Of a stretch of 64,000 nucleotides of DNA, positions 321-56,423 are shown one piece after another. Location of the stretch: the NCBI GenBank assembly GCA_964580785.1, contig CAZOKX010000003.1:2512-66511 (forward strand), given 5' to 3'. The stretch comes from an uncultured bacterium. Its GTDB lineage: Bacteria > Chlamydiota > Chlamydiia > Chlamydiales > Rhabdochlamydiaceae. Under the pieces are notes generated by a model that saw only the letters and a list, made by a program, of their open reading frames with translations, was not told where the DNA came from and searched no databases. The stretch's first letter is position 1; every line of letters begins with the position of its first letter. A program made the translations under genes and the position numbers.

Positions 321-1563
321 TGTGAGCCAAGGGGGTCGATCTTGTTTACGCTTGTTTACAACGAAAAACGCCAAAACTGATAGAAAAATTACCGCAAAAC
401 CTTGACCAGCTCAAATAGATGTAACCAATTGTTTTAGAGATGGTTTACTTGAAGGCCCTTCAAAACTTTAGGTGCTCGGAAAATCTCACAATGAAATCTG
501 TCCTGCTTTTTGAAACTGTGAGTCAAAGGGGTCGATTTTGTTTACACCTGTTTACAAGACCCATCTTTTATGGAAAGAGGGAGAATCTCAACCCCTTTTG
601 TTTACAAACCCAAGAGCGTTTGATCAAGCAGTCTCTTATCTGAGAAAATCTATAAGTTGCTTAAATTCAACAAACTGTCTTTTTCTTTATTATCCTATCT
701 GTGAAGGATAAGGGTCGAAAAATGTGAATCAAATAGGTCGATTCTGTTTACAAAATAAAGTCTTTTAAGAGAGGAGGTGTGAAAGATGGGGGTCGATCTT
801 GTTTACGCTTGTTTACAAGATTCAATAGCTTTCGAGGACTTGCCTCTCTAGAGGGTTCGTTTCATCTGCTATTTTCGATTCTTAACAAGTCCAACTTTGA
901 GTCTATACCTGATAAATCTTCGATTGTGTGAATGATAAAGGTCGAAGATTGTGATCCAAAAAGGTCGGTCCTGTTTACAAAATAAGAGACCTCCGAGAGG
1001 GCACTGTGAAAGATAGGGGTCGATTTTGTTTACAGTTGTTTACAAAACTCAACTACCTTCTAAATCGAGCAAAGTTCCCATGAGGTTTTAAGGAGAAAAT
1101 TTATCTAATCTAAAGGAAAAAAATTGAGACTGTGAAAGATGAGGGTCGATCTTGTTTACATCTGTTTACAAGCTCCATTATTACAATTTCTTAGAGGAAA
1201 ATTCATTCAAAAAGGCGATTTCTCGCTGTGAAAGATGGGGGTCGGTTTTGTTTACACTTGTTTACAAAAGGTGTCTTGATGCAGCTCAATTCATCAGAAT
1301 GGTTTCTTTTTTGGCTCTCGTAGCGAAGCGAGAGAGAGCCTTTGTTTGCTGCGCAGCTGTAAACACTTTATATTCTGATTGAATATAGTTAGAGCTGTTT
1401 ACTTAAGCATAAGTCGCATAAATACAATGGCTTGCAAAACAGGCAGTGAACCAAAGGGGTCGGTGTGGTGATTGATCCAGGTCGGTATTGTGACTGAAGA
1501 GGGACGATTTTGTTTACAAGACTGTGAAAGATAGGGGTCGATCTTGTTTACACTTGTTTACAA
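321..1563 (+). repeat. Iteron array (putative replication origin): 7 near-identical 41-bp direct repeats plus 3 degenerate or composite copies
   Basis: Full copies TGTGAAAGATGGGGGTCGATCTTGTTTACNCTTGTTTACAA at 321-361, 517-557, 778-818, 1005-1045, 1131-1171, 1227-1267 and 1523-1563, all in one orientation. Degenerate copies at ~723-755, ~927-986 and ~1447-1520. Each unit carries CTTGTTTAC twice, 10 bp apart. Confidence 0.8.
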
Positions 1564-1628
1564 AGCGCATTATACATGAGAAGAGCAAGGCTTCTATAAT
1601 TTTTGACATATCAAAAACCGATGTTTTT

Positions 1629-3278
1629 TTACAAATTTTTATCGGCAAAAGCCCTTACCTTATCTGAGACTTCTTTGCTGATTTGCCTTTTCTCATTGAG
1701 GATATAGCTAACCATTTGCCCAGTAATACCCACATGATTGCCAAACTGTCTGACGTTTAAATTGGACTTTTTGTAGATTTCCTTAAACTCTTCATAGTCG
1801 ACTAGCTTACGCTCATCTTTTTTCTCTAGAGCTGGAATCTCTTTATTAGACTGGATGCGACCAACTTCTTGCCCAAACCAATCAGGTGGGGTAAGCGTGA
1901 GAGAACAGGCAAAAGGATTTTCGCATTCTGAGAGGAGAGATTTTCCTCCGGTATGAGACCACTCTCCTAAGTACCCATGCTCTTTCATATAGTTGAGTTC
2001 GGATTCAAGAGATCTGAGGTCTCTCATCTTGTATCGGCTCTCGGATCCTAAGTGACACCAATCCATCAGATTAGTAACGGATATTTTTCGATCTGCACTC
2101 ATCCGCCAGAAAATTGCTAACAAGGGAGTTAAATAGATCGTTAGAGGATGCACACGGTGGTTTTCTTGAGCGATTTTTTTAAGCAGCTTCGTGTATTTGG
2201 CCGATTGTCCATCCTTGGGCTCAAAGGCGTTTTTGTACCAAAAGTCTGTAGCCCTAAGCTTGATCTTTTCGTCGATGATGACCTTATCGAATATCTCCTG
2301 CTGAAAGCCTTCTATGCTAAAAAGTCGTTCGCCTCGAAGCACTTCGTGTTTCCCATCTTTTCTTCGAGCTGTGATAAAAAGGCTTTGGAAAATTCTGAGA
2401 ATCTCACTAGCTGTCTTTTTTAGCTCATGATCATAAGAACCGTTCGCCTTTTTCTTATGGCCCAATCTAGATAGATGGTCGTTAACGCTCCAAATGAAAT
2501 GTCCTTTTCGGAAGTTTTCTTCCATACCGATTAACAAACCTAAAAGATGTCTTAGTCCCTCGGCACCGAAGGTGCGTTTGATATAGAGAGCCAGGCTAAC
2601 TTCTCTGAAGTGAATGTCATTTTTAAAAAGAGCGATATCGATCTGGGCAGATGCTTCTACCTTTGGGTTATCGCTGATTACAGCAATATGTTTTGTGTCG
2701 GTTTCCTCTCGCCCGCTCTCGTAGCTACTGGTTTTTTCTACTCTTATGATAGAGGAGAAAAATTCTTCAGCTTCTTTGTGTTCTTTTTCTGTCCATTCAG
2801 ACTGAGGCTTAGTTAATAGACGCCTTGGGATCATGTCAGGCTTTCCAGCAAACATAGCGAGTAGGGTGAACATCAAGGGATGGGATGGAAGGGCAAAAGT
2901 ATCTCTGTTGGAAGATTGCTCGACTATTTTTTCAATAGCTGCTTCAATTTGAGATTTTTGGGCAATAGGGCCCATCTCACTCAATATGTTTTTTAAAGAA
3001 GCAAGCTGATGAGGGGAGAAATTTTGTATGGTTGATGCGGTGGGTTCCCAGTCGCTACTTTCCGAACGATTGGCTTCTCCGAAAGAAATGCCAAGCAGCT
3101 GCAGGTCTTCGACTGTTTTAATGTTGATGGATTTTCCCGTTCTGTTGTCCACAACGTGTAGCTTTTTATTTACCACGGAAAGCTGATAATCTGGCTCTGA
3201 GGGTACCTCAGCAGGTAATAGTTTGGCTTCTTCCTTTACAACTTTCTTTTTTTCTTTTTTTGCTTTTGTTTTGCCCAT
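1629..3278 (-). CDS. Putative replication initiator / iteron-binding protein with C-terminal XRE-type HTH (function inferred from position)
   Basis: 549-aa ORF whose 3' end lies 66 bp from the last iteron, 4 bp downstream of the primase-helicase gene. Lys-rich N-terminus. C-terminal HTH-like NVRQFGNHVGITGQMVSYILNEKRQIS. No family recognised with certainty. Confidence 0.45.
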   Translation of the reverse strand: MGKTKAKKEKKKVVKEEAKLLPAEVPSEPDYQLSVVNKKLHVVDNRTGKSINIKTVEDLQLLGISFGEANRSESSDWEPTASTIQNFSPHQLASLKNILSEMGPIAQKSQIEAAIEKIVEQSSNRDTFALPSHPLMFTLLAMFAGKPDMIPRRLLTKPQSEWTEKEHKEAEEFFSSIIRVEKTSSYESGREETDTKHIAVISDNPKVEASAQIDIALFKNDIHFREVSLALYIKRTFGAEGLRHLLGLLIGMEENFRKGHFIWSVNDHLSRLGHKKKANGSYDHELKKTASEILRIFQSLFITARRKDGKHEVLRGERLFSIEGFQQEIFDKVIIDEKIKLRATDFWYKNAFEPKDGQSAKYTKLLKKIAQENHRVHPLTIYLTPLLAIFWRMSADRKISVTNLMDWCHLGSESRYKMRDLRSLESELNYMKEHGYLGEWSHTGGKSLLSECENPFACSLTLTPPDWFGQEVGRIQSNKEIPALEKKDERKLVDYEEFKEIYKKSNLNVRQFGNHVGITGQMVSYILNEKRQISKEVSDKVRAFADKNL

Positions 3279-3282
3279 GAAA

Positions 3283-5628
3283 TCAGCTCTTCTCTTTTAG
3301 TGTAGACAAAGGTCTATCAAATACCAGGGAGATGGTATGGTTGGAGCGACCATTGCGATTTTTGATAACGGCTAAGTCAATATCAACGAAGCGATTCATA
3401 GAGGATTCGCCCTTAGTCTCTGTGCTCTCCTTTTCCCCATTCCAAATACCCAAAATGACCTTTGCATCGTTCTCGATATCGCCAGCCTCACGTATGTTAT
3501 CCATACGCAATACCTCTGATTTAGTGGTTCCTCTCCCGAGTTGGGCTCCTAAAACAATAGGGACGGAATTGGACTTTGCTGTTTCCAGAATGGTTTCCGA
3601 AATTTTTTGAAGCTCTAATTGTCTACTGGAGGATTTGCCACGGAACTTGATTTTTTGCATGTAATCAATAAAAACAGCTCCTAGCTTCCCTCTTTCTTTA
3701 AGTCGTGCGATTTCCTTACTCAAATCATCTACGAAAAGAGGGTGATCACAAACGATCAACCGATGGCTCTCTGTCAATGTTTGGAGAAGATCGATAGCTT
3801 CATTAACTTTAGGGACTTTAGTGAGACCACCTCTTACGTAGCCCTCTAAATTGGCAAGGTTGGTAACCTCATTGAGACATTCTCCGCTAAGGATATTCAA
3901 AATCTTCAGAAGAATCTGGTTTTTCGGCTCCTCATAGGAGAAAAAATAAAACTCTCTGTCAGGATACAGCTTAACCATGTTTACAAGAAAATTGAGCAGG
4001 GTCGTTGTTTTCCCATGAGAAGGTCTACCTGCGATGATCGTAATAGCCCCTTGAGGAATTTGAACAGTTTTATCGAGAGATTTGTACCCAGTTTTCAAGC
4101 CTTCTGGGATATTTGATAGATCTGCCTTTAAATTTTCTACAGTATAGGGTTTAACGCGGAATTCCTCAGCTTTATCTTCTTTTCTCAATTTAGAAAGAAG
4201 CTGAGTGGCTTGATTGAGATCCCCCTGGGCAATTAACTTTTGAGCTTCATCAAGCGACTGCTTATATTTTTCAGCTTCATCTTGAGATTTTTGCTCTTTT
4301 AACGCTTTAGCTAGGACATTATCGATTTCAGCAGAGGGCAGATCGAAAATGTTTCCTATTTCCTGTCGGAAAATGCCTTTGCTGAAATCATCTTCAATTT
4401 GGGCATATGCCTTAGAAGCCCTTCCTAAGGCCGAGAATCGACCAATGTCGGTTGAAAGGTCATACTTGTAGGCAAAGTAAGAAGGAAGCCATCTAACGCG
4501 GGCCTGAGCCTTTTCTTCCACCAGCTTTTTGAAAGCTTCAGCTCCTTTTGCTTTCACATATTCATCTGGATCTTTGAATGGAGCTAGGTGATGTGGAGGT
4601 AAGATAAATGCCTTAATGTCATTTCTTTCCAGCAATTCGGCAGCTTTTTTTGCCTTTTCAATAGATCCTATTTCGCCTTTGTTATCCTTTGGGTCGTTGT
4701 CAAAGACGATTACCACGCTCTCGATCTCATAAATTTTCAAGCTTTCAATATGCTTGGTGGAAAGCTCCCCCTGACCTGTAGCGGCAATGTTTTTTATACC
4801 CAAGCTTGGTAGATAGGCGGCATCAGGAAGGCCCTCTACTAAGATTAGCTGCTTTTCGCGCCTACATCGGTAAACATTGAAAGGATCGTCTTTTTTAAGG
4901 CCCGAAGTATAACTCCAACGATGAGTTTTACCTTCAGCATCCTCAATCCCCTCTTTGATGGTGGCTCTTTTGGCAAATCCAAGAATTTTTCCGTATCTAT
5001 CTCTATAGGGAAGAGCAACTCTGAAAAGATCTCCACCGTTTCCGTTGAGTTTGATAGAGGTTGCTTCCAGGTGCTTTTCCTTTGGAAGTTTGGATTTTAA
5101 ATGCTTCCTTATTTCAGCATCCTCTGGCCAATATATCCATTCCGTAGCTTGAAGATTGGTTGTATCATATCCTCTAACATTGACTAGGTATTCAAGAGCT
5201 TCCTTTCCTTTTGAGGAAAACAGCAGCTCTTTTCCATATTGAAAGATCATCTCATAGAGGTGAGAAGCAGCATATACAGGTTTGGGTTCTTGGGTTAAGA
5301 AATTGCCTCTTTGTAACTCTTCGAGTAGATCGGTTCGAAATGTTTCGGCGAGATACTTGCAGGATTCGACGAAATTCAGCCCTTTTTCCCTTTGAACAAG
5401 CTCAATGGCGTCAAAAGACTCATTACAGCTAAAACAATGCAAATGACCCCATCCAGGCCCTAATTTACAGCATTGACCGCTTTTTGACTCGTGACCGGCG
5501 ATACATTTTCCTACTAGATAGCCTCCAACCGACTTAAATCCTAGCTTATGGCGTAAGTCAAGATGATCAATGACATCTTCTATCCGTATGGACGCTTTTA
5601 ATTTTTCCTTAGCCAAGTTGCCAATCAT
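3283..5628 (-). CDS. Primase (CHC2 zinc finger + TOPRIM) fused to DnaB-type replicative helicase
   Basis: 781 aa. Zinc-finger-like CIAGHESKSGQCC...HCFSCNESFD. TOPRIM-like LILVEGLPDA ... VVIVFDNDPKD. C-terminal Walker A IIAGRPSHGKTT, Walker B VFIDYMQKI, and NRNG near the end. Confidence 0.85.
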   Translation of the reverse strand: MIGNLAKEKLKASIRIEDVIDHLDLRHKLGFKSVGGYLVGKCIAGHESKSGQCCKLGPGWGHLHCFSCNESFDAIELVQREKGLNFVESCKYLAETFRTDLLEELQRGNFLTQEPKPVYAASHLYEMIFQYGKELLFSSKGKEALEYLVNVRGYDTTNLQATEWIYWPEDAEIRKHLKSKLPKEKHLEATSIKLNGNGGDLFRVALPYRDRYGKILGFAKRATIKEGIEDAEGKTHRWSYTSGLKKDDPFNVYRCRREKQLILVEGLPDAAYLPSLGIKNIAATGQGELSTKHIESLKIYEIESVVIVFDNDPKDNKGEIGSIEKAKKAAELLERNDIKAFILPPHHLAPFKDPDEYVKAKGAEAFKKLVEEKAQARVRWLPSYFAYKYDLSTDIGRFSALGRASKAYAQIEDDFSKGIFRQEIGNIFDLPSAEIDNVLAKALKEQKSQDEAEKYKQSLDEAQKLIAQGDLNQATQLLSKLRKEDKAEEFRVKPYTVENLKADLSNIPEGLKTGYKSLDKTVQIPQGAITIIAGRPSHGKTTTLLNFLVNMVKLYPDREFYFFSYEEPKNQILLKILNILSGECLNEVTNLANLEGYVRGGLTKVPKVNEAIDLLQTLTESHRLIVCDHPLFVDDLSKEIARLKERGKLGAVFIDYMQKIKFRGKSSSRQLELQKISETILETAKSNSVPIVLGAQLGRGTTKSEVLRMDNIREAGDIENDAKVILGIWNGEKESTETKGESSMNRFVDIDLAVIKNRNGRSNHTISLVFDRPLSTLKEKS

Positions 5629-5685
5629 ATCAAATCCCCTTGAAGACGCGTATTTGGTTTTCTCTCACAGTCAAGCCTTATAGCG

Positions 5686-6237
5686 CTATCTAATTTGCTC
5701 TTCTTCCATATTGATAAGCAATTGAATGGCTTCGCAAATCATTTCTGATTTTTCTGTAGCTCTCCCCTGCAATATTCGATTCGCATAAAGATCATGAAAT
5801 GCCTTATGAATGTCCTCCCTTATATTGAAAGTCATCTTGCAGGTAGGAATTTTCTGATTTTTCGACTGTTTAGTCGAGAATATCGTTGGTTGTCTGGTTT
5901 GTGGGGCCTCTGGTTTAACATCTAGCTGGACTTCCATCTTTCCAGCAGGGTGGATTGTCGTCTGCCCAGATAGTTGGTGATTTGGGAAAATGGTTTGTTG
6001 GGGAGTCGGTTGACCGGATGGCTGGACCTCCGGGTGAATGGCCGTCTGGGTGACAGGACTTATGGGTTTCTGGATGTCCAGATGGCTGGCCTGTTTATTT
6101 TCTGGTTTACCATCTTTCTGGCTGTCTGGTTTGCCAACCATTTGATCTCCAATCATTTCGGAGAGACCGATTTTGCGCTTCTCATTGACTTCGAGTTGCT
6201 TTTTAGATTTTTCTTTGAGTTCGTTAATTCCTGACAT
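5686..6237 (-). CDS. Putative ribbon-helix-helix centromere-binding partner of ParA (ParG-like), with long Pro/Gln-rich linker
   Basis: 183 aa, overlaps the parA stop by 14 nt. C-terminal RHH-like KMTFNIREDIHKAFHDLYANRILQGRATEKSEMICEAIQLL. Low-complexity middle region. Confidence 0.5.
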   Translation of the reverse strand: MSGINELKEKSKKQLEVNEKRKIGLSEMIGDQMVGKPDSQKDGKPENKQASHLDIQKPISPVTQTAIHPEVQPSGQPTPQQTIFPNHQLSGQTTIHPAGKMEVQLDVKPEAPQTRQPTIFSTKQSKNQKIPTCKMTFNIREDIHKAFHDLYANRILQGRATEKSEMICEAIQLLINMEEEQIR

Positions 6238-7003
6238 TAGTTAGTCTCCCCATAACTTCTTTGACTAAATTTCCATATGCTTCTGCTCCCGAACACTTGG
6301 GATCATGGTCGAATACTGATTTGCTAGTTTCTTGGGCTTCGCTCAGTTTGACGTTTTCTGGGATCCTAGTTTCAAAAACTTTGTCGCCAAATAGCTCATT
6401 AATCGTTCCAAGTACTCGTTTTGATAAATTGCTCCGTGTCTTGAAAAAGGTGAAGAGGACCCCCATGATCTGAGCGTGATGATCTACCAAGCTTCCTGCT
6501 CTTTCGTTAGTACAATTGACAGACTCTAAAAAGGATTGGATGCCAGCTAAGCTGAAATAGTCTAATTGAACTGGTAAGATGATGTGCTCAGCTGTTAAAA
6601 AAGCGTTGGCTAGAAGCGTATTGAATGTAGGGGAGGTGTCAATGATGAGAAAATCATAGTCTGCATTCTTGAGTTTTTTTCTTAGAACAAACTCTTTAGC
6701 TGTAGTTTGTGCTAACTTAAATTCGGCCGCAGAAAGAGAATTGTCGGAGGGAATTATATGCAGATTTTCAATGTATGACTCTTGAACCACGTCTTTTATA
6801 TGGCAGTTGTCTTGGCATAAGAGCTCTGCGATTGTTTGTCGGTTTTCTGTTTTAATGCCGAGACCCAAGCTCGAATGGCCTTGGGGATCTAAATCGACCA
6901 AGAGCACTCGTTTGCCTGCACGAGCAAGCCCTGCGCTCAAGTTGATGGCAGTAGTGGATTTTCCTACGCCTCCTTTTTGATTCGAAATAGCTATCTTGTG
7001 CAT
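6224..7003 (-). CDS. parA: ParA/Soj-family partition ATPase
   Basis: 259 aa. Deviant Walker A NQKGGVGKSTT, then VLLVDLDPQGH and FLIIDTSP. Confidence 0.9.
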   Translation of the reverse strand: MHKIAISNQKGGVGKSTTAINLSAGLARAGKRVLLVDLDPQGHSSLGLGIKTENRQTIAELLCQDNCHIKDVVQESYIENLHIIPSDNSLSAAEFKLAQTTAKEFVLRKKLKNADYDFLIIDTSPTFNTLLANAFLTAEHIILPVQLDYFSLAGIQSFLESVNCTNERAGSLVDHHAQIMGVLFTFFKTRSNLSKRVLGTINELFGDKVFETRIPENVKLSEAQETSKSVFDHDPKCSGAEAYGNLVKEVMGRLTNVRN

Positions 7004-7038
7004 TCAGTTGAGTCCTTGCATTCCGTTGGTCTGATTAT

Positions 7039-7101
7039 ATTCCCCAACTTTAAGTTAGGCGAATATTTATGTAAATAGGGAATTGGGGATTTACGGGAAT
7101 T
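7039..7101. promoter_or_regulatory. Candidate operator/centromere-like motifs in the divergent parA / RHH intergenic region
   Basis: GGGAATT at 7078-7084 and 7095-7101, GGGGAT at 7085-7090, and the inverted ATTCCCC at 7039-7045, between the parA start (7003) and the RHH gene start (7157). Confidence 0.3.
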
Positions 7102-7156
7102 ATGGGTGTTGTTAAGATGAAAACACTTTAGCAAAACTGATAGACGAGGATAGGTA

Positions 7157-7354
7157 ATGGCGAAAAAAACCGTTAAAGAAAATTCGGAAAAATCGAAAAG
7201 AGCGCGCATTTCATTAGAATGTTCTCAAGAAATCAGAAAATTCATACGGGTTAGCGCTGCGAAAAAAGACACAAGCATGAATGACTATGTTGTATCGCTT
7301 GTATTGGAGAAAATGCAACAAGATAAAGAAATCGCTCATTCACCAAAATCATGA
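7157..7354 (+). CDS. Small ribbon-helix-helix (CopG/Arc/ParG-like) DNA-binding protein
   Basis: 65 aa, divergent from parA. RISLECSQEIRKFIRVSAAKKDTSMNDYVVSLVLEKM fits a beta-strand plus two helices (RHH pattern). Confidence 0.5.
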   Translation: MAKKTVKENSEKSKRARISLECSQEIRKFIRVSAAKKDTSMNDYVVSLVLEKMQQDKEIAHSPKS

Positions 7355-7669
7355 AGATTTCGGATACATGTCTTTAATCTTTTTAATCAGTTCTACCCAT
7401 ACTTGTCCATCAGGACCGATATCAATCCCTTTCGATGCTAGATAGGCAAGCGATTTATACACTAAATCTAGTTGATCTCCGAGAGGTGGGTAAAGAGCAC
7501 GCCTAAAATCAGCATAGTAAGCCCAATGATAAAGGCGTCCATCAGGTCCTAAAATCGCATCACATGTAGTTTCTGTGACATTCTCTGGAATGGGCTGGTC
7601 TTTTGGCCAGTTTCCACACCAGATGGGCATCCCGTGCCTGTAATAGCATTTGACGTTTCTATAAAACAT
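7349..7669 (-). CDS. Hypothetical protein at the distal end of the fibre cluster (possible fibre accessory/assembly factor)
   Basis: 106-aa ORF, last gene of the minus-strand virion block. Contains PPLGDQLDLVYKSL. No confident family. Confidence 0.4.
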   Translation of the reverse strand: MFYRNVKCYYRHGMPIWCGNWPKDQPIPENVTETTCDAILGPDGRLYHWAYYADFRRALYPPLGDQLDLVYKSLAYLASKGIDIGPDGQVWVELIKKIKDMYPKSS

Positions 7670-7682
7670 AAAAAGAAGGCAC

Positions 7683-8066
7683 CTAAACGTTGGCTATTAA
7701 AAATCTTGTTCCATAAGGAGTTAGTCGGCAATTATAGACAAATCCTCCTGAAGTGGTTGAGTTCACAATAATCATTCCAGATGAATCCAGGGTAATAGAG
7801 TTGAAGGTATAAGCTCCCGCAGTATTGTTAAAATTGCGAATAGTGGCAAGTTGATTCGCAAAGCCAGGACCCCCAAATCCTTCATGGGAGACGGTATACA
7901 TAAACCGTATATCTAAGTTAGGACCACCAAGTTGGATAAACATGAGAAATGCTTGAGTATTGTTTGCTGTTACCCCTGGTAGTTGTGAAATGTTTGTATT
8001 CCCATTTAATAAATTCCCAGAAAAGGATTGAGAATTGTTATTTACTGTATTCTGTGATAATCCCAT
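7683..8066 (-). CDS. Hypothetical fibre-cluster protein (Asn/Thr/Gly-rich)
   Basis: 127-aa ORF packed 30 bp downstream of the 976-aa fibre gene. Composition resembles the neighbouring fibre proteins. Confidence 0.45.
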   Translation of the reverse strand: MGLSQNTVNNNSQSFSGNLLNGNTNISQLPGVTANNTQAFLMFIQLGGPNLDIRFMYTVSHEGFGGPGFANQLATIRNFNNTAGAYTFNSITLDSSGMIIVNSTTSGGFVYNCRLTPYGTRFLIANV

Positions 8067-8096
8067 CTAAATTGTTATCCTAAAAAATTGTACTCT

Positions 8097-11027: not shown

Positions 11028-11093
11028 GATGTTTCTGCCTTTTATGATTTATATTCTGTAATAGTCTTGGGTAATTGGGTTGAAGATCTGAGC

Positions 11094-46320: not shown

Positions 46321-46365
46321 ATCCTAGAGGATAACCTGTATGATAGGATTAAAAACGGAGCAACT

Positions 46366-48316: not shown

Positions 48317-48426
48317 AATGACCTACTTAATTTATTTTTTTGAGCTTACCCATTTAACCACGAGAAATCAAGCAGAGACTCCCGTCAAAAAGTCTAAAGG
48401 TATGCTGCAAACAACTTCTCATGAGG

Positions 48427-48466
48427 ATTCATCCCGAAAATGACAATTGCTAATTTCGGGATGAAT
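48427..48466. terminator. Perfect 13-bp stem hairpin (ATTCATCCCGAAA / TTTCGGGATGAAT, 14-nt loop), T-run on the + strand
   Basis: Read directly. Lies between the stop of ORF 48517-48942 and the MFS remnant's start. Confidence 0.45.
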
Positions 48467-48516
48467 TTTTGCCTTCAATTTTGGATCCCCAAAATGGCAT
48501 TTGCTGATTTACGGAC

Positions 48517-48942
48517 TTAAAGCACCTTAAATTTATAGAAAAAGCATTCGGGATTTTGACAAACACCATTCCCGTCTGTCTTAACGTCACAATTAGGGCA
48601 AGGACCTTTTGTTTTTTCCTTCTTTGCTGCCGCTAACTCTATACCATGACTAAAACTTCCCTCTATAAAGTGGCCATTCCTATTAAATTGTAAGAGGGGA
48701 AGAGGAGAAAATTCGGATCCATTCAAATTAATAAAAAGGCCTTGATGCGTAGGAACAATATTTTCTGGACGAATGAAAATCTTATCTCCGTCAAAAGCAG
48801 ACACGCAGTATCCATGATTTTCAACGATTTTGTGGATTAAATGGTGCTCTGTTGTTTCAATTGGAACCATCTCCGCGTGCAAGGAACCAATCGCTCCTAA
48901 AAAGGCTGAGATCATCAAACTGAAAAGTTTTCTCTTGATCAT
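48517..48942 (-). CDS. Secreted hypothetical protein
   Basis: 141 aa. Signal peptide MIKRKLFSLMISAFLGAIGSLHA. C-terminal Cys cluster CPNCDVKTDGNGVCQNPEC. Confidence 0.55.
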   Translation of the reverse strand: MIKRKLFSLMISAFLGAIGSLHAEMVPIETTEHHLIHKIVENHGYCVSAFDGDKIFIRPENIVPTHQGLFINLNGSEFSPLPLLQFNRNGHFIEGSFSHGIELAAAKKEKTKGPCPNCDVKTDGNGVCQNPECFFYKFKVL

Positions 48943-49108
48943 ATTGAACTCCAGTTAGGGTAAGTGTAGGTGACTTTTGCAAGTCAAATAAATTTTCTAG
49001 CACCAGCTGATTTAAGGCAAGCGTTCATAGAAGAGTTCGAGTAAATTATCTTGTTTGAAACCATGGGCGCTTCTACACTTGATTTCCCATACGTTTAGGT
49101 AAGAGATT

Positions 49109-50134
49109 ATGCAGCGCAAGAGAACCAGTCTGATTTATGTCTTGATGATATTTTTGATGCTTTTTACTGCCTGTTCTTCGCCATATCCAGAGCAATCCAA
49201 AAAGTTCGAACTTACGGCTGAAGAACACATTTGGCTAGAGAAATTTTTCCGCTATTTCATGCTACATGAAACGACGATCTATACGCTTGCAGGTTCAAAG
49301 CCTTTAACTAGAATGATTCTTTGCTATGAAGATACGCCGGAAGAGCAGCTCAGAGAAGAGAAACGAGAAGAGTATCTTTATTTCTTATTGAATAGAAGTA
49401 ACGAAAAGGACATGCAGTTCTATGAAAAACTTTCACCTCTAGAAAAAGAAGAAAAAGCACTACTTATCGATGACAAAGACTTCATTTATAATATTGAAGA
49501 ACTATGGGAAAAATGGGAAAAGATACAACACCGCTTTCCCATTAAGAAGCGGTTTCTCCTGTTAAAAAAAGAGCGACCTAAAGAGGATTCAAAAGAGACG
49601 GCTATATACTACGATGTTCTATTTGTCGATGTGCTAAAAACAGCTCTCGTTATTCAGGAGAATTATGAGCTATTTAGGAAGACTGTAGGATATGATTTCG
49701 ACCCGCTTGAAGTTGTATTTGAACTAGAAAACAAGCACTCTAATTTTTGGGAGAAGCTTCGAGGAAAAGAGGGATGGAGATACGCTACCCTATGGGGAAT
49801 TCTATACGGTTTTGGTAGAGAAAATGCTTTTGTCTACACTTGGAAAGGCAGAAATACAAAAGAGCCCCACCGAACTCAACAAGAAAAGCTTTGGGCAGCA
49901 AGCCTTCCATCATGGAGTAGCTGTAAGAACAGACCTTCTTGTGATGATAAAGGCGCTTTTACTCTCTCAAATTTTACCATCCCAGTATTTAAGTCTTTCA
50001 TTGAGAACGACCCTGTCGTTGCTAAGTATGAAGCAGAAAGAGAAAATATCAAGCAGCTCTATAAGGGAAAGGATTTTGTTGCTTATACCTTAGAGCTGCT
50101 CACAGAGCTGCCAGATGCGGAGAAAGAAAAATAA
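49109..50134 (+). CDS. Hypothetical lipoprotein
   Basis: 341 aa. Lipobox LFTACSS. Glu/Lys-rich. No family recognised. Confidence 0.55.
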   Translation: MQRKRTSLIYVLMIFLMLFTACSSPYPEQSKKFELTAEEHIWLEKFFRYFMLHETTIYTLAGSKPLTRMILCYEDTPEEQLREEKREEYLYFLLNRSNEKDMQFYEKLSPLEKEEKALLIDDKDFIYNIEELWEKWEKIQHRFPIKKRFLLLKKERPKEDSKETAIYYDVLFVDVLKTALVIQENYELFRKTVGYDFDPLEVVFELENKHSNFWEKLRGKEGWRYATLWGILYGFGRENAFVYTWKGRNTKEPHRTQQEKLWAASLPSWSSCKNRPSCDDKGAFTLSNFTIPVFKSFIENDPVVAKYEAERENIKQLYKGKDFVAYTLELLTELPDAEKEK

Positions 50135-50706
50135 TGAAAAATGAACAAGTGCCTCCAGTAAAAGTTGAGAAATTCCATCTGGGAATCTATGTGATTATCA
50201 CTAAAGGAGACAGTGTTCTGCTCGTAAAAAAATCACGAGGCCCCTATCGAGGTAAATGGGATTTGCCTGGAGGCTCTCCTCTGCATGGAGAATCGATCTT
50301 ACAGACCCTTCATAGGGAAGTGTTTGAGGAGACTGGAGTGCGTCTTGATTGTGTAGATCATCACAAAAATATAGCTTTCACTGTTGAATACAAAGAGGGC
50401 GGCAAGAGAATTTCTCTTCATCATATATGTCTCGTCTATATGGCAAGAGACTCCTTCGATACCTCTGGGTTTATAGAAAAGGTGGAAAAGGAAGACGTTA
50501 GTGAATGCGCCTGGATCAAAAGATCTCAGCTATTGGGAAAGTTTCCGACTTCAAAAGTTTTTCGCTATAGCTATGGAGGGGAGACCCCTCTTAATGAAAA
50601 TAGGGAAAAATCTCATAAGAAAGTCAAAAACAGACAGAAAAACGGGCCAAATGGCTTTTACACCTTTGGGAGATTAGAGAAGACAAAAGGCACTAAAAAA
50701 GAGTGA
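50134..50706 (+). CDS. Nudix hydrolase with basic C-terminal tail
   Basis: 190 aa. Nudix box GGSPLHGESILQTLHREVFEETGV. The ATG overlaps the upstream stop. Confidence 0.8.
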   Translation: MKNEQVPPVKVEKFHLGIYVIITKGDSVLLVKKSRGPYRGKWDLPGGSPLHGESILQTLHREVFEETGVRLDCVDHHKNIAFTVEYKEGGKRISLHHICLVYMARDSFDTSGFIEKVEKEDVSECAWIKRSQLLGKFPTSKVFRYSYGGETPLNENREKSHKKVKNRQKNGPNGFYTFGRLEKTKGTKKE

Positions 50707-50770
50707 TCTTTCTCTTGGCATCTCAGTAAAAAAGTTGAGGATTTAAAAGAAATTCAGTAAATTGACCTCT

Positions 50771-51325
50771 ATGAACATTCGACAGAGCTATCAGTCTTTA
50801 GTGGATAAGTATAAGGGTGGTAACCAGATCATCAGAAAGATGGGGTTGTACGGCTTATTTATTCAGATTGGTGCCATTGGTGCTATCAATGCCTGGAAGC
50901 CTCTGCAGATAGGTTATTATCATATTGCAGTGCCAGCTCTCTTTACTGTCTCTGTTTATTATCTTGTTAAAGATTTTTTTGTTTTACGCCGCATTGAAGA
51001 GAATATGGGGCGGATGATTTTAGAAGGAATAGATCACGAGACCAAAAACCCTGCTCTTGGAAATTTTTTTCATAGAGTGCTCCAATCCTTCAACTTTTCA
51101 CGCACCCTTATACAAAGGTCTCTGGTTAATGTTTTGTCCCTAGGATGTTTAGGGTATTTGATGCTTCAGTTTGTTAGGGAAATGAATCCGGATGTTGCCA
51201 TTAGCCAGTGGTTTCTCGGTTTGTTCACTTGGATACCTGGTGTTATAGCCACAAAACTGTACTATGATTCTCTCAAAGATCTTGACGAGGCAAAAGAAAG
51301 AGTTTTTGCCAAACAATCTTCCTAA
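50771..51325 (+). CDS. Hypothetical membrane protein
   Basis: The track start at 50762 is TTG; the first ATG (MNIRQSY) is at 50771. About 4 hydrophobic helices. Confidence 0.5.
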   Translation: MNIRQSYQSLVDKYKGGNQIIRKMGLYGLFIQIGAIGAINAWKPLQIGYYHIAVPALFTVSVYYLVKDFFVLRRIEENMGRMILEGIDHETKNPALGNFFHRVLQSFNFSRTLIQRSLVNVLSLGCLGYLMLQFVREMNPDVAISQWFLGLFTWIPGVIATKLYYDSLKDLDEAKERVFAKQSS

Positions 51326-52311
51326 GAAACAAGCTGAACTTTTTCTGTTGCATTACTCTCTTGGGACGTCTTGTCATAGGCGCAAACCATGGCAGCGCTA
51401 GAATGCCCCGTCACTTTCATGATATCGGTGTCCTGGAAACCTTGTTGTTTCAAATAGGTCACTGTCGAAGCTCTGAGCACATGAGGCGTTACCTTGAAGG
51501 GAATGCCGGCAGCTTTTCCAGCCTTTTCAAACATTTGGGCAAGCCTTGTCATCATAACAGGTTTTCCTGACCGAGTGATAAAAACAAACCCAGTTCTTTC
51601 TCCGAGATAGCATTTGAGCTTATCCATGACGCTCTGTGGGTAAGTGATAACAGTAGCCTTTCTCGTCCCTTTAGTCTTGGATTGCTCAAAGATGATTTTT
51701 CTTCGTTCCCAGTCGATATTTTGAGTTTGAAGAATTAAAACTTCGTTAGCCCGCTTTCCACCTTGAAGGATCAACTTTGCAATCAAGCATTCTCTCGGAC
51801 TGATCTCTTCCAGAGCGTCTAAGAATAAAACCCATTGAGATTGGCTCATTGCCGCTGTTTTGACCTTATCGTAGACCTTAAAAAAGGTTTTCGCGTGTCC
51901 CTCTCTATTAGCAATGGCTCTACTAATGATTCCTTTCGATCGCCTATGGAGAAATTTTGTAAAAGAGATATAGCAGGCAGCGCGAGATTGCCGACTGCAT
52001 TCAGTCCAAGTTGAGACTAACTTGATTTGATCGATGATGGCTTCATGATTGACCAAGGAAAAACCTTGTAAATTGAGAAGGGGAGAGAGCAGCCCTATTT
52101 CAGCAAGCTTGCGTAGTCCAGATTGGTAATTAATGCGTGTTCGAGGAGTTAGGGTTGAAAGCCACAGCTCAGCGGCTTCTTGAACGGTGACCTTTTCTAA
52201 TTGCTGCCATATTGCATTTGATTGAGTGTTCCTTGCCTCTTCAAAGCTGTTAGCGCTTGGAAGTTCTAAGCCACTTGTATTTATTATCGTCAAAGACATG
52301 TTCTTCTCCAT
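51322..52311 (-). CDS. Tyrosine recombinase resembling the chlamydial plasmid integrases Pgp7/Pgp8
   Basis: 329 aa. …[11 protein letters not shown]…[12 protein letters not shown]…[56 protein letters not shown] closely parallels my recollection of pGP8-D (…[51 protein letters not shown]). Confidence 0.8.
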   Translation of the reverse strand: [329 protein letters not shown]

Positions 52312-52442: not shown

Positions 52443-52763
52443 GTGGCTATTAAAACTATTGACGCCTTATATTCCTTGTTGCTACAGATACAAAAAACCC
52501 AAGGAAATCAAATGACTCAAGCGCCCATACAACAAATCCAAGCTAGCGATGAAGAGACAATCAACACAGTTGAACCAATCGCAAAGTCTAATAAAAAAGT
52601 TAAATTTTCAGCCTATTTGACTGAAGAAGCAGAAAAGGCGTTAGCAGAACTCTATACCACACGTTACATGAAGGACAGGAAGACGGATCGCTCAGCGATT
52701 GTCAGCGAAGCCATTCTGGATTTTTATCAGAGAGAAAGCCCTACAGAACAGCAAAATATGTAA
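52443..52763 (+). CDS. Ribbon-helix-helix DNA-binding protein divergent from the integrase
   Basis: 106 aa (GTG start; an alternative ATG lies at 52512). C-terminal KVKFSAYLTEEAEKALAELYTTRYMKDRKTDRSAIVSEAILDFY is RHH-like. A hairpin plus T-run follows the stop. Confidence 0.5.
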   Translation: MAIKTIDALYSLLLQIQKTQGNQMTQAPIQQIQASDEETINTVEPIAKSNKKVKFSAYLTEEAEKALAELYTTRYMKDRKTDRSAIVSEAILDFYQRESPTEQQNM

Positions 52764-52814: not shown

Positions 52815-54164
52815 CTAAAGCGTCATCATCGCATTCAGATCATAAGTCGCATCAGTCAGCATCAAGAATGCACCACTTAGAGCATCGACGATATCATCAT
52901 GGCTGCCCTCAGGGAAATTCTCCAGCTCTCGTAGAAGGTCCTCATTCCATGGAGCTTGCAAAAGCTTAATATTCCCAGCTTCTGCCTGAGATGAGACGGG
53001 GAGAGATCTGGTAACCTTGTCCTGAGTTGCTTTGACAGTTTTTATGTTATAGCCTTGAAGCATTCGAACCAAATAGTCAGCTTCACTTACCCCAGCTTGC
53101 CCAGGATCTTGCTCAATTCCAATCCTTACAGAAACTCCATCTTGAGAGGCAGTATTTTTAATAGCACTTTGAACGCCCAGTGGGGTTTGCTGAATCCTCA
53201 CCATATCGGTGACATATAAGATGTTGTTTTTGTCTTTCTCCAGCCTAAGCCCAACGGTATAGTCGGGATCGTTATTCTCTGTTTTTTTGGTAGCTGCACG
53301 ATCCCAATAACGCACGGCCTTTGTTCCTCCCTTTGGGATGGCTTTAACAATTTCAAAAAAGCTACGCTGGAAAAACATCCCAGCCGTGGGTCTGACGTTC
53401 CAATTTCCCATGAGAAGTTGCTCTCTTTCAAACCGCGGCAAAGCTTTAAGATTGGCTAGGTAGCCAGGGTCTTTTTCGAGCAAGATTTTGTTATCGTGCA
53501 CAGTTGATGCTATAAATGAAACGCTCTTAGGCAGGCAATGCGGGTCCTTTTCGATTAGTTCTTGTCGACTTGACCCCCAAATGGTTTGATCATTTTGGAT
53601 GAAAAACCAGCGAATTTTTCCGCTTCGAGAAGGGATTGGATAGCCGGTGCTTTCATCAATCCACCAGGAGATAAAATGCCGAACCCACGAGTCAGGATCG
53701 GGATTTGTAGTAGCTCGAATATAAGGCTTTATGCCGCAAGTTGATCTATTTCTTGAGAGCATATAGACGAACTGGGTCCATGAAAAATGAGTTAATTCAT
53801 CGAATCCAATCAAAACCAGTTGTGAACCTTGCCAGTCAAAGCGTGTCTTGTCATGTTCTAGGTGAGCAAATTTCACTCGACCTTTCCCTTGAAAGTCCCA
53901 CTCAAGCGTTGACTCTTTTGGAACGCCTCCAGCATGGGGAAAAATCTCGCAACTCGTATCCCATAGTCCTCCTGGATTTCTTACCTGTGTGCTATTTTTG
54001 CGAAAGATAACCGCAGAGAACCCAGGGATATTGCGACGGCGTAGACACTCTATTAAAAGAGCCCAACTTTTCCCTCCGCCTGCGGCTCCTCCGTAGATCA
54101 CTATGTCAGCCCTGTTTAACAAAAAAGCTTCTTGAGGACCTTTTTGAGGGACAATTTCAGACAT
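52815..54164 (-). CDS. terL: Terminase large subunit
   Basis: 449 aa. Walker A VIYGGAAGGGKSWAL, Walker B-like LIGFDELTHF. C-terminal nuclease-like region with …GSHDDIVDALSGAF. Confidence 0.85.
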   Translation of the reverse strand: MSEIVPQKGPQEAFLLNRADIVIYGGAAGGGKSWALLIECLRRRNIPGFSAVIFRKNSTQVRNPGGLWDTSCEIFPHAGGVPKESTLEWDFQGKGRVKFAHLEHDKTRFDWQGSQLVLIGFDELTHFSWTQFVYMLSRNRSTCGIKPYIRATTNPDPDSWVRHFISWWIDESTGYPIPSRSGKIRWFFIQNDQTIWGSSRQELIEKDPHCLPKSVSFIASTVHDNKILLEKDPGYLANLKALPRFEREQLLMGNWNVRPTAGMFFQRSFFEIVKAIPKGGTKAVRYWDRAATKKTENNDPDYTVGLRLEKDKNNILYVTDMVRIQQTPLGVQSAIKNTASQDGVSVRIGIEQDPGQAGVSEADYLVRMLQGYNIKTVKATQDKVTRSLPVSSQAEAGNIKLLQAPWNEDLLRELENFPEGSHDDIVDALSGAFLMLTDATYDLNAMMTL

Positions 54165-54645
54165 TTGGATCCTCCACTTTTTCTTCTATGAGATCATCCC
54201 GTCCATTATCAGGAATGTAGATCTTAACAGGGTCTTCTTCTTGAACAATTGTTTTTGTAACGATAGTCTCTCTTTGACCGAGCCATATTTTGCCCAGCCA
54301 GATGGCCATCGTGGCACTTCGCTGAGCTTGCTGAAATTGATAGCGGCGAAGGGACAGTTTATGCAGTCCATTACACCTTTTTCTTAACTCCGCAAAACCC
54401 ATACCAAAAGCCTCCCTTAATCGGCGGTCTAAAGTGTCTGTGCTGACCCTAAAAGCGCCTGCTACTTCTTCAGCCGTTGCCTGAAGTTCTATCCAATACA
54501 GCACTTGGTCGAGATTGATTTCTTTCTCAGGGACCGTTCCTTTCCATTCTGAAGGGGGAGCATTTGGATCTATAGGAGCCTTTGTTTTAATCTTCGGCCT
54601 CCCGCTGGGCCGTCCTGTAGGTTTTCTAGGCATAAGCTTTCCCAT
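54157..54645 (-). CDS. terS: Terminase small subunit (HTH)
   Basis: 162 aa. Overlaps the terL start by 8 nt. …AEEVAGAFRVSTDTLDRRLRE… HTH and ATMAIWLGKIWLGQRE motif. Confidence 0.65.
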   Translation of the reverse strand: MGKLMPRKPTGRPSGRPKIKTKAPIDPNAPPSEWKGTVPEKEINLDQVLYWIELQATAEEVAGAFRVSTDTLDRRLREAFGMGFAELRKRCNGLHKLSLRRYQFQQAQRSATMAIWLGKIWLGQRETIVTKTIVQEEDPVKIYIPDNGRDDLIEEKVEDPNV

Positions 54646-55930
54646 TCAATTTAATTTCACAGGGCTCGTTTCGTTGAAGCTTGTATTTTCTATACCGATC
54701 GACAATCACATCGCAGTACTTCGGGTCTAGCTCACATCCATAGCAGCGGCGATTCAGTTGCTCCGCGGCGATCAAGGTCGTACCTGAACCAAGGAAAAAG
54801 TCGAAGACAAGCTCGCCTTTTTTAGAGTTGTTATTAATCAGATAGCCGATTAATGGGATCGGCTTCATCGTGGGATGCTCTTTATTTCTTTGAGGGCGAT
54901 CAAACTTAAGAAGGGTGGTTTGCTTGCGATTGTTATACCAACGGTGTTTTTCCCCCTCTTTCCAACCATAGAGCACAGGGTCGTGATCGCTGTATTCTTT
55001 ACCTCCGAAAAGTATGGGCTCGTGTTGCCATTGGTAGTCTTGCCGACCAAGGACAAAGGAGTTTTTCAACCAGATAAGGCATTGAGCCATTTTTAGGTTT
55101 GCTTCTCTAAAAAATCTTCGAAATTTCTCCCCTTCGGAATCAGCATGAAATACATAGATCGCTGCGCCTTCTTTCATGAATACAAAAGCATTCAAATAAA
55201 ATTCCTTTAAAAGGGTTTCAAACTCCTCATCTGAAAGGTCATCGTTTTTGATGGTCAACTGGTCTGGCGTACCGCCTTTATAAGCTACATTGTAAGGGGG
55301 ATCTGTGATGACAAGATCAATAAGCTCTGATTCCAGCACTTTTTCAACATCTTCGAAAACCGTTGCAGACCCACAGATAAGTCTGTGTTTTCCAAGCTCA
55401 TAAATATCTCCGCGTTTAGTTTTTGGTGCTTCAGGCAGGACCTCTTCATATCCATCGTCGATAGCCTCAATTCTTTCAATATCTTCGATTTGGAGCTCAT
55501 CTTCAGTGAATCCCCAATTGAATAGGTCGGCTGTCTCCCATTCATTGGCCAGCCGTTCCCAATCCCATTCTCCTGTATTCTTATTGCTGCGGATGAGATA
55601 TTCTTCTGCCTCTTTTGGGGTCAACTGCCGGTTGGGGACGCGGACCTCAATCTCTTCTTTTCCACGGCCAAGAGCTTTTAATGCTCGGATCCTCATATGG
55701 CCGGCGAGAATGGTATTGTCTAGATTGACGACAATGGTCTCTACATAGTTAAAATTCTCAAGCGATTGCTTAAGCTTTTCCAGCTGATCTTTGGTAATTT
55801 TGCGAGGATTTTTCTCGTGCTCTTTCAAATCTTTGATTTTTCTGATTTCGGTATGCCATACGAGTGCCTCTAAGGGAACATCACCATCTGCTTTCTTGAC
55901 CTCTACTTTTTTAGCTTTATCCTTTTCCAT
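54626..55930 (-). CDS. ParB-like nuclease domain fused to N6/N4 DNA methyltransferase
   Basis: 434 aa. ParB-N-like ILAGHMRIRALKALG. Methyltransferase motif IV VITDPPYNV. C-terminal AdoMet-binding-like FDFFLGSGTT. Confidence 0.8.
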   Translation of the reverse strand: MEKDKAKKVEVKKADGDVPLEALVWHTEIRKIKDLKEHEKNPRKITKDQLEKLKQSLENFNYVETIVVNLDNTILAGHMRIRALKALGRGKEEIEVRVPNRQLTPKEAEEYLIRSNKNTGEWDWERLANEWETADLFNWGFTEDELQIEDIERIEAIDDGYEEVLPEAPKTKRGDIYELGKHRLICGSATVFEDVEKVLESELIDLVITDPPYNVAYKGGTPDQLTIKNDDLSDEEFETLLKEFYLNAFVFMKEGAAIYVFHADSEGEKFRRFFREANLKMAQCLIWLKNSFVLGRQDYQWQHEPILFGGKEYSDHDPVLYGWKEGEKHRWYNNRKQTTLLKFDRPQRNKEHPTMKPIPLIGYLINNNSKKGELVFDFFLGSGTTLIAAEQLNRRCYGCELDPKYCDVIVDRYRKYKLQRNEPCEIKLNGKAYA

Positions 55931-56078
55931 TTCATCTTCCTGTTTAATTTGTCATACAAAAGCCTTTGCAGCCAATTTTTCCAATTCAATTTAGAAAACG
56001 GCCTGGCTTAGGATTTTAAAAGGGTTATTGAGGAAGGGGAGTAGTTAGGGTACTTGGGTAGAAGCCTGAGGGCTTAAT

Positions 56079-56423
56079 TTAGACTTTACTGACGATTTCG
56101 ATAGTTACGGGATACAATTCTTCAACCATTTTCCGCTTTGTTTGACTTAAGGCTGTATCTTTGCCTTTAGTATCCACAAAGCTTATCTCACCATTCGCAT
56201 AGAAGATCTGAAAATCACATACGTAACGAACTTTCCCCGGCAAATCGAATGGAATCTGCCTTAAGAAGAATAAAACTTCACCTGCTTTTTGGAGCATTTG
56301 CAGTTTATCATAGTAGTTTCTCTCTAACTTCGAGGGAAATTTCTTTCCATCTCGTTCACAGGGGATAGCGCCAAATTTGTGTCGGGGCCTCCTCCCAAAA
56401 GGTTGTTTAAACACGATAGGCAT
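56079..56423 (-). CDS. DUF1064-like small nuclease-fold phage protein
   Basis: 114 aa. KFPSKLERNYYDKLQMLQKAGEVLFFLRQIPFDL…YVCDFQIFYANGEISFVDTKG fits the DUF1064 pattern. Confidence 0.55.
   Translation of the reverse strand: MPIVFKQPFGRRPRHKFGAIPCERDGKKFPSKLERNYYDKLQMLQKAGEVLFFLRQIPFDLPGKVRYVCDFQIFYANGEISFVDTKGKDTALSQTKRKMVEELYPVTIEIVSKV

Follow-up and report, generated by a model that had tools for sequence, protein, structure and literature searches.

A candidate tailed phage-plasmid on a replicon of the chlamydial plasmid family

The 64-kb stretch of DNA analysed here (contig CAZOKX010000003.1, positions 2,512 to 66,511; hereafter the window) carries plasmid replication and partition genes, a myovirus-type virion module, terminase genes and a tyrosine recombinase of the clade of the Chlamydia plasmid integrases Pgp7 and Pgp8. 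It covers about 92% of a contig of 69.5 kb. Phage genes alternate with plasmid genes along a single chimeric replicon, and no prophage bounded by att sites is present. A first-pass annotation of the sequence had described iterons, a Rep, a primase-DnaB fusion and a ParA/ribbon-helix-helix (RHH) pair at 0.3-7.4 kb, and all of these were found at or near those positions:

316 to 1585, plus strand: iteron array and putative origin, ten copies of a unit of about 40 nucleotides (nt), TGTGAAAGAT-GGGGTCGATCTTGTTTACAnnTGTTTACAA, with irregular spacing and a single orientation.
1629 to 3278, minus strand: Rep549, a putative iteron-binding initiator of 549 amino acids (aa) with a C-terminal XRE/HigA-type helix-turn-helix (HTH), adjoining the iterons.
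3283 to 5628, minus strand: primase (CHC2 Zn-ribbon_DnaG and Toprim) fused to a DnaB-type helicase (DnaB_C, E 2e-36).
5686 to 6237, minus strand: ParA partner of 183 aa with a low-complexity N-terminus and an RHH-like C-terminus, the latter read from the sequence.
6224 to 7003, minus strand: ParA partition ATPase of the Pgp5 type (AAA_31, E 9e-53), overlapping the gene at 5686-6237.

The iteron core GGTCGRTYYTGTTTAC has ten matches at 334-1551, all on the plus strand, against none expected from dinucleotide shuffles. The same core also adjoins the Rep gene in the plasmid of Criblamydia sequanensis CRIB-18 (LK031773, closed, circular, 89.5 kb; hereafter the Criblamydia plasmid) and in the loci L103-L108 from uncultivated viral genomes (UViGs). 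No Pfam or NCBIfam family was assigned to Rep549 in library scans. Its sole match among 72,556 plasmids (PLSDB) was an open reading frame (ORF) of the Criblamydia plasmid, with 78% identity, and its relatives in metagenomes form at least 150 clusters. The C-terminal HTH matched the XRE/HigA type in the PDB (E 5e-4), and the top six PDB folds for an AlphaFold2 (AF2) model of moderate pLDDT (62) were all iteron initiators, namely RepE, RctB domains 2-3 and a WH1 Rep (E 1.6e-3 to 0.3). The adjacency to the iterons and these fold matches are suggestive, not proof, that Rep549 may be an iteron initiator with a tandem winged-helix fold.

The primase-helicase shares 72% identity with its Criblamydia counterpart, and its helicase domain shares 30% with C. 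psittaci Pgp1. As its best full-length matches after Criblamydia are on plasmids of Cyanobacteria and Bacteroidota, a DnaB-type helicase alone is not diagnostic of a chlamydial plasmid. For the partition genes, parA has 65.6% nt identity to the parA of the Protochlamydia naegleriophila plasmid, with ParA being 34% identical to C. psittaci Pgp5 at the protein level. The 183-aa partner matched no family in the library scans; its gene is kept downstream of ParA in nine relatives and, judged by its RHH-like end, it is a probable centromere-binding protein.

Genes for distant homologues of Rep549 (54-56% identity; loci L160 and L161) come immediately after a gene for a DnaB-type helicase and overlap it by the same 4 nt. 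The neighbourhood on L160 (ENA ERZ25039544 contig_17740) contains genes for TraD, DsbB and a MobA/TraI relaxase as well as IS605 elements, and phage genes are absent near the Rep549 homologue within the 21.7 kb seen. The Simkania negevensis plasmid pSn resembles this locus in that TraD, DsbB and a MobA relaxase are found on both. Going by this gene order, the helicase-Rep549 pair is a general replication module of chlamydial-type plasmids, which also serves conjugative-type plasmids and has here been joined to a myovirus.

The virion block is uninterrupted and lies entirely on the minus strand between 7.3 and 36.8 kb, as determined by PHROG and Pfam scans, and the packaging genes and the recombinase are located at higher coordinates. 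The virion gene assignments are PHROG family matches of the window ORFs, and the names LysM215 and HNH166 are our own labels:

7349 to 16079, minus strand: hypervariable tail-fibre or receptor-binding block, with three long fibres (976, 521 and 461 aa) and small tip or accessory proteins.
16191 to 25562, minus strand: distal tail and baseplate, comprising conserved small tail proteins, a baseplate I-like protein (251 aa), a gp6/J-like protein (661 aa), a gp25-like protein (120 aa), spike (216 aa), hub (287 aa), LysM215 and tape measure (356 aa).
25717 to 26624, minus strand: tail assembly chaperone (phrog_1613, E 3e-27) and tail tube (phrog_280, E 3e-42).
26621 to 27121, minus strand: endonuclease HNH166 (phrog_2340, E 1e-31), between the tube and sheath genes.
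27177 to 29614, minus strand: contractile tail sheath (626 aa, DUF3383 type; phrog_205, E 6.5e-108) and tail terminator (phrog_7975, E 4e-26).
29780 to 31349, minus strand: head-tail connector and neck proteins (phrog_939, 222, 302 and 1983).
31349 to 32278, minus strand: major capsid protein (MCP), DUF2184/HK97-type (phrog_264, E 1e-93).
32291 to 36807, minus strand: head assembly, comprising a 260-aa structural or scaffold-like protein, a DUF2213 protease, a Mu-F/SPP1 gp7-like morphogenesis protein and a DUF1073 portal.
46201 to 47799, plus strand: AAA ATPase with an ArsR-type HTH, a conserved neighbour of the integrase in relatives.
51322 to 52311, minus strand: tyrosine recombinase of the Pgp7/8 clade, between TerL and the portal side of the element.
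52815 to 54645, minus strand: TerL (52815-54164; Terminase_6N, E 3e-27; Terminase_6C, E 3e-16) and putative TerS (54157-54645).
54626 to 56423, minus strand: fusion of ParB_N and a DNA methyltransferase, and a DUF1064 protein, a conserved phage block upstream of the terminase.

The virion and packaging genes by which a phage-plasmid is recognised are all there (terminase, portal, MCP, protease, connectors and tail), and their ORFs are intact and tightly packed, with intergenic gaps of at most 170 bp. An intact myovirus-type module at 7.3-36.8 kb and terminase genes at 52.8-54.6 kb, both proposed in the first-pass annotation, were therefore confirmed by the family matches, with TerL matched by Pfam and TerS remaining a putative call made from position alone. 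A tailocin or other contractile injection system, consisting of sheath, tube and baseplate only, was ruled out by the conserved capsid, portal, protease and terminase genes.

Using the Nei-Gojobori method against Criblamydia and two relatives from metagenome-assembled genomes (MAGs), dN/dS was 0.01-0.10 for every virion gene with an estimable dS, in comparisons where dS was mostly near or at saturation. The structural genes are therefore under strong purifying selection, and the degradation that would have spoken against a working module was not seen. Protein identity to Criblamydia was 44-88% for the distal tail and baseplate (dN/dS 0.01-0.10; LysM215 among them is a 215-aa baseplate protein with endolysin and tail-fibre PHROG matches), 91-96% for the connector and neck proteins, 96.8% for MCP (dN/dS 0.02-0.03) and 90-91% for the head assembly proteins (PHROG E 5e-108 for the portal and 1e-84 for the protease), with TerL and TerS at 88% and 84%. 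The exception is the tail-fibre block. Between 8 and 16 kb it had zero similarity to the Criblamydia plasmid by blastn and protein comparison, indicating complete replacement, whereas the remaining virion module is 71-81% identical at the nt level.

In the same comparison, dS against Criblamydia was 0.26-1.1 for the neck, MCP, scaffold, protease and morphogenesis genes (29.8-35.3 kb), whereas the portal, sheath, tube, TerL and hub genes had reached saturation. Such a contrast points to a recent recombinational exchange of a head-gene segment between lineages.

The recombinase at 51322-52311, in which a close parallel to Pgp7 and Pgp8 had been seen at first reading, was compared with the 72,556 plasmids by tblastn. 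It is closer to Simkania pSn (70%) than to Criblamydia (59.5%), and these are followed by Waddlia (50.6%), C. psittaci Pgp8 (47.5%) and Pgp7 (42%); 112 of the 193 plasmid matches were Chlamydia. The parallel was thus upheld. The same annotation took the helicase and ParA as hallmark genes of the Pgp1 and Pgp5 kind, and for these the resemblance is present but amounts to just 30-34% identity and is generic. A Pgp7/8-clade recombinase, a ParA/Pgp5-type ATPase and a DnaB-type helicase, genes that characterise the core group of chlamydial plasmids of Köstlbacher et al. (2021), are all found in the window.

The integrase matches, the similarity of the replication module to that of Criblamydia and the iteron core common to Criblamydia and the UViG relatives indicate a chlamydial backbone. 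The best matches of the backbone genes (integrase, replication module and right-end genes) lie inside Chlamydiota, whereas matches outside it would have refuted the first-pass proposal, and a chlamydial host is well supported through these relatives. The host would be an environmental chlamydia, possibly of the Rhabdochlamydiaceae or Parachlamydiales.

The Criblamydia plasmid has the same architecture right round, with iterons, Rep, primase-helicase, RHH, ParA, tail, head, portal, cargo, integrase, TerL, TerS, methylase and DUF1064 in that order. The nt identities by blastn were 69% for the replication and partition module, 71-76% for the baseplate, 81% for the stretch between sheath and portal and 76% for that between TerL and DUF1064. 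The window's element differs from it by having an intact AAA-HTH gene and the HNH166 endonuclease, which is absent from the tube-sheath junction in Criblamydia; a 49% homologue occupies the same junction in the UViG locus L054, and HNH166 is presumably a homing endonuclease. The cargo also differs, with copper genes in the window's element only and ars, RND efflux, AbiE and sugar-metabolism genes in the plasmids of Criblamydia and Protochlamydia massiliensis.

The C. sequanensis plasmid was published in 2014 (Bertelli et al.), and the P. massiliensis plasmid, which is circular with 92,055 bp and about twice the chromosomal read depth, carries the same genes. Phage genes on these sister plasmids were noted in 2014 and 2021, and the plasmids are described in the literature only as carrying "phage-derived genes". 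Köstlbacher et al. (2021) recognised a 'phage group' or 'putative prophage' building block on both, inferred whole-plasmid transfer between the two species and found high inter-family gene flow of chlamydial plasmid genes. The element is therefore an additional member of an already published chlamydial plasmid family, not the first of its kind, and the first-pass claim of new biology was overstated. What was not found in the literature searched is the reading of this family as phage-plasmids or as complete tailed-phage gene sets: our search for tailed phages or phage-plasmids of Chlamydiota retrieved nothing beyond statements of a 'phagic origin', a 'phage group' or a 'putative prophage'.

The family is widespread. 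Relatives of MCP with 94-99% identity are present in 13 GTDB species-representative MAG contigs assigned to Parachlamydiaceae, Rhabdochlamydiaceae, Chlamydiota and a few probably mis-binned taxa. Overall, members of the family were found in no fewer than 13 MAG species, and MCP is 93-98% identical in at least 16 IMG/VR UViGs. Identities of 94-99% across contigs binned to Parachlamydiaceae, Rhabdochlamydiaceae, Criblamydiaceae and other groups indicate mobility. Together with the low dN/dS, the intact ORFs and the replaced fibres, this widespread, near-identical MCP fits virion genes that would form a functional, mobile system rather than a decaying one.

The phage genes lie in two blocks with plasmid genes on both sides, and the window, Criblamydia and the MAG relatives all have the integrase and AAA genes between TerL and the portal. 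A search of IMG/VR with MCP returned three shells of relatives, at 93-98% (the chlamydial clade), 69-78% and about 50-60% identity, and the two outer shells cluster at 41-47 kb. In these outer relatives the DUF1064, methylase/ParB_N, TerS, TerL, portal, head and tail genes are contiguous. The myovirus-like UViGs of about 41-47 kb (e.g. IMGVR_UViG_3300028800_000162; MCP 60-78% at the aa level, GC content 43%) are collinear with the window but, unlike it, have TerL adjacent to the portal. One free relative was rebuilt from four loci as a 43,397-bp sequence (GC 43%) with homologues of most conserved virion genes of the window and no integrase, ParA, primase-helicase or Rep. No terminal repeat was found in it, so it may be incomplete. 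Between the fibres and DUF1064 it carries just an early region of 6.4 kb (with DUF932), at the site where the chlamydial elements have their plasmid module, with cargo beyond. Without its cargo, the window has a core of 42.3 kb in total, which matches the size of the free relatives.

From the side of the plasmid genes, a conserved Rep549 fragment was used to search IMG/VR. The loci fetched in this way that reach far enough (Rep at least 69% identical) have tail genes beside the backbone (L103, L104, L107, L108 and L110), and three UViG contigs hold both Rep and MCP. One of these loci, L110 (IMGVR_UViG_3300049255_000556), is rearranged, with an inverted tail module that lies not upstream of ParA but downstream of Rep and its iterons. 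The two interleaved phage blocks, the split of TerL from the portal by the integrase and AAA genes and the lack of att-like repeats argue for a single entity and not a prophage within a plasmid.

Phage-plasmids such as P1, N15 and SSU5 combine plasmid-type replication and partition, a recombinase, tailed-virion and terminase genes and accessory cargo on one replicon. The window's element likewise combines plasmid maintenance, a recombinase, a full virion and terminase set and cargo. It differs from them by its chlamydial core with a Pgp7/8-clade recombinase, its host phylum of obligate intracellular bacteria, the lack of recognised lysis and immunity genes and the splitting of its late genes by cargo, and it is known from its genes alone. 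We consider it probable that the element is a chimeric plasmid of an environmental chlamydia and a phage-plasmid in the P1/N15/SSU5 sense on a chlamydial replicon; from the genes, we infer that it is episomal and that particles are made.

Such an element would be kept as a low-copy circular plasmid through iteron-controlled initiation, ParA/RHH partition and recombinase-mediated multimer resolution. The virion genes would be switched on under some signal, and TerS and TerL could then package the DNA of the element into tailed particles. These particles may carry the element, or parts of it, among chlamydiae that share a host cell or an environment.

Several observations weigh against a working phage-plasmid. 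No holin, endolysin or CI-type repressor was recognised using Pfam, PHROGs, NCBIfam and a hydropathy scan of small ORFs, and the possible regulators recognised were just two Cro-like HTH paralogues and two RHH-like proteins. Opposite-strand cargo interrupts the series of late genes. The element has at least 64-69.5 kb and its sisters have 88-98 kb, against a 42.3-kb core and 41-47-kb free relatives, so they may exceed the capacity of the head. No virions were reported, in the literature searched, in the papers on the two cultured carriers. In L010 (CAVVXH010000002.1), a 350,419-bp contig of a Parachlamydiaceae long-read MAG, the portal ORF appears frameshifted and the morphogenesis gene is a partial match; the flank within the 21 kb visible is cargo (AbiEii, MarR and GNAT). 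Integration or decay of this copy could explain these features, as could indel errors in the long reads. Finally, there is no overlap between the two ends of the 64-kb window, from which circularity is therefore unreadable.

The size difference is also what favours a domesticated system similar to a gene transfer agent (GTA), in which the particles would carry headful pieces (about 45 kb) of plasmid or host DNA and the element would no longer propagate as a phage, being selected for gene exchange among intracellular chlamydiae. Plasmids of 64-98 kb with a 42-kb core and 41-47-kb free relatives would be expected in this case, and the lack of recognised lysis and immunity genes, the strong purifying selection on the virion genes and the high flow of plasmid genes between families reported by Köstlbacher et al. 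are in agreement with it. However, nine independent chlamydial assemblies fall at 87,956-98,405 bp (L013, L014, L015, L017, L018, L162, P0143 and the Criblamydia and P. massiliensis plasmids). This clustering could be a coincidence or a packaging-size constraint, e.g. the headful limit of a larger head, and head capacity is unreadable from sequence. In addition, TerS/TerL, the methylase and fast-evolving fibres are typical of infectious phages. A GTA-like role is, in our judgement, a possible but rather unlikely explanation.

The literature's 'putative prophage' corresponds to another reading, that a tailed prophage once integrated in an ancestral chlamydial plasmid and is now inert, decaying cargo. 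The splitting of the phage genes by cargo insertions, the AAA-HTH gene that has shrunk to a 39-aa remnant in Criblamydia and the apparent portal frameshift in the long-read MAG could be taken as signs of this. We nevertheless find it very unlikely. The low dN/dS holds for each virion gene for which it can be estimated, with dS saturated, and the virion genes of at least 13 MAG and at least 16 UViG relatives are syntenic with the window. The borders expected of a prophage (att sites) were not found, and the phage's own early module is gone, with the plasmid module in its place.

Integrated plasmid genes within a chromosomal prophage or genomic island are a highly improbable source of the window. 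Plasmid integration is known in P. amoebophila (Köstlbacher et al.) and some relatives lie on 154-350-kb contigs, but no tRNA, rRNA or housekeeping genes are found in the 64-kb window, nor are the chromosomal genes or att-flanked borders by which the first-pass proposal could have failed. The syntenic relatives include closed plasmids, and the contigs of several relatives end inside single-copy genes, as expected from circular molecules linearised at arbitrary points. An assembly chimera of a phage contig and a plasmid contig is hardly credible even for a source that is probably a MAG, as two independent Logan assemblies reproduce window positions 789-16455 and 6027-9003 at 100%, including the ParA|tail-fibre junction, and junctions of the same types are seen in many MAGs and UViGs as well as in the Criblamydia plasmid, which is finished.

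Although the element belongs to the chlamydial plasmid core group, it is not a member of the 7.5-kb plasmid type of Chlamydiaceae. The two share the integrase (47.5% to Pgp8 and 42% to Pgp7), the DnaB domain (30% to Pgp1), ParA (34% to Pgp5) and a homologue of the Pgp3 C-terminal domain (CTD), and in both the helicase gene is followed by an overlapping second gene. The link rests on the recombinase, ParA and the helicase domain. The window's element is ten times larger, its helicase is fused to a primase domain, and its iterons, different in sequence and layout, are unrelated to the tandem array of four 22-bp units in C. psittaci. Homology of the Rep549 and RHH families to Pgp2, Pgp4 or Pgp6 was also considered and was rejected (hhalign probability below 2%), and no match to CT583 (Pgp6) was found in an NCBIfam scan of the window proteins.

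The Pgp3-like protein is encoded within the tail-fibre block, which also encodes a second tip protein of the C1q/TNF fold that is different from it:

11589 to 12086, minus strand: Pgp3-CTD homologue of 165 aa, matched by sequence and fold.
14169 to 14669, minus strand: C1q-domain protein (Pfam C1q, E 1.6e-7), with collagen X and C1q heads as its best PDB sequence matches.

By itself, the 165-aa protein scored 18.7 bits against Pfam PF05475 (Pgp3 CTD), below the 25-bit cut-off. Its family comprises at least 673 phage-associated proteins from metagenomes, many of which carry PF05475. When a 35-sequence profile of this family was searched against the entire PDB, Pgp3 chains were the sole matches (E 1.8e-4), and hhalign aligned the protein to residues 143-259 of C. 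psittaci Pgp3 (E 6.5e-5). For its AF2 model (pLDDT 86), the top 18 Foldseek matches were all Pgp3 (E 1e-9; TM 0.88 to 4jdn; root-mean-square deviation about 2 Å), and the next match after the Pgp3 entries was the lambda gpJ fibre (E 2.6e-5). In both sequence and fold, the protein is thus specifically homologous to the C-terminal (TNF-like) domain of Pgp3.

The structural resemblance of the receptor-binding protein head of phage Tuc2009 to Pgp3 was already noted in 2016. That a chlamydial phage-plasmid has a Pgp3-CTD homologue among its fibres suggests an origin of the Pgp3 CTD from a phage fibre-tip domain; this is a lead, with ancestry not demonstrated. The family extends beyond the phage lineage of the window, as one member closes the late operon of a podovirus-like 43.6-kb contig. 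The rearranged locus L110 also carries a 39% homologue.

A bolder extension, which we hold to be doubtful, is that this family of tailed phage-plasmids is active, has a broad host range and shuttles metal-resistance and other cargo between chlamydial families; its members would be the first tailed phages known for Chlamydiota. Pgp3 would then be a domesticated tail-fibre tip or receptor-binding domain, and the small Chlamydiaceae plasmid, with its phage-type Pgp7/8 integrases, may perhaps also have descended from such elements.

To our knowledge, the chlamydiamicroviruses (Chp1-type Microviridae) are the only known or cultured chlamydial phages. These are small icosahedral viruses with single-stranded DNA, no tail and no plasmid genes, and they are unrelated to the window's element despite infecting the same host phylum. 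Chlamydiae are obligate intracellular bacteria and are hard to manipulate genetically. If particles are made by this family, it would provide a natural vehicle for delivering DNA to environmental chlamydiae and a candidate vector for them. It would also explain how plasmid genes flow between families, as has been inferred from phylogenies, and would offer metal-resistance genes a route of spread. As sister elements are present in two cultured strains (C. sequanensis CRIB-18 and P. massiliensis), this hypothesis is directly testable. The Pgp3-CTD homologue in the fibre block also provides an evolutionary lead on the origin of a major virulence factor of Chlamydia.

The remaining genes of the window are cargo and accessory genes, together with a small RHH-like protein:

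37375 to 45361, no single strand assigned: metal-resistance cargo, with two P-type ATPases, an outer-membrane efflux protein and a multicopper oxidase-DUF2231 fusion, between the portal and AAA-HTH genes.
47801 to 51325, no single strand assigned: miscellaneous cargo, with a fragment of a major facilitator superfamily protein, hypothetical proteins and a NUDIX hydrolase.
52443 to 52763, plus strand: protein of 106 aa with an RHH-like C-terminus, read from the sequence and matching no library family.
56509 to 63299, no single strand assigned: accessory plasmid genes, with SPFH, four-transmembrane-segment, TPR and WapI-type immunity proteins, two Cro-like HTH paralogues and a 165-aa protein.

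Cargo, in this case metal-resistance genes, has built up at the junction of TerL and the portal and also beyond DUF1064. In the relatives L011, L013, L015, L016 and L018, the AAA-HTH gene comes directly after the portal, without intervening cargo. No att sites or insertion sequence ends were found around the cargo, the sole repeats found there being the two paralogous P-type ATPases. The 5' end of the AAA-HTH gene contains a 54-bp unit repeated twice in tandem (81% match) at 46209-46314, which may be a regulatory or binding site. In Simkania pSn, an AAA ATPase is also located directly upstream of the integrase.

For the 106-aa protein, encoded between the integrase and TerL genes, a role in regulation or as a second centromere-binding protein is conceivable. 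It and the ParA partner at 5686-6237 (minus strand) are two small proteins of unrelated look that both end in an RHH-like motif. At the right end, the TPR, HTH and 165-aa proteins have homologues of 37-43% identity on Simkania pSn. The WapI-family immunity protein (61486-62106, plus strand; Pfam E 1e-30) has no recognisable toxin gene nearby and may be an orphan immunity protein. The two Cro-like HTH paralogues, each of about 100 aa, are encoded adjacently on the minus strand at 62101-62403 and 62422-62742; each is 37% identical to an HTH regulator of Simkania pSn, and both are candidate regulators.

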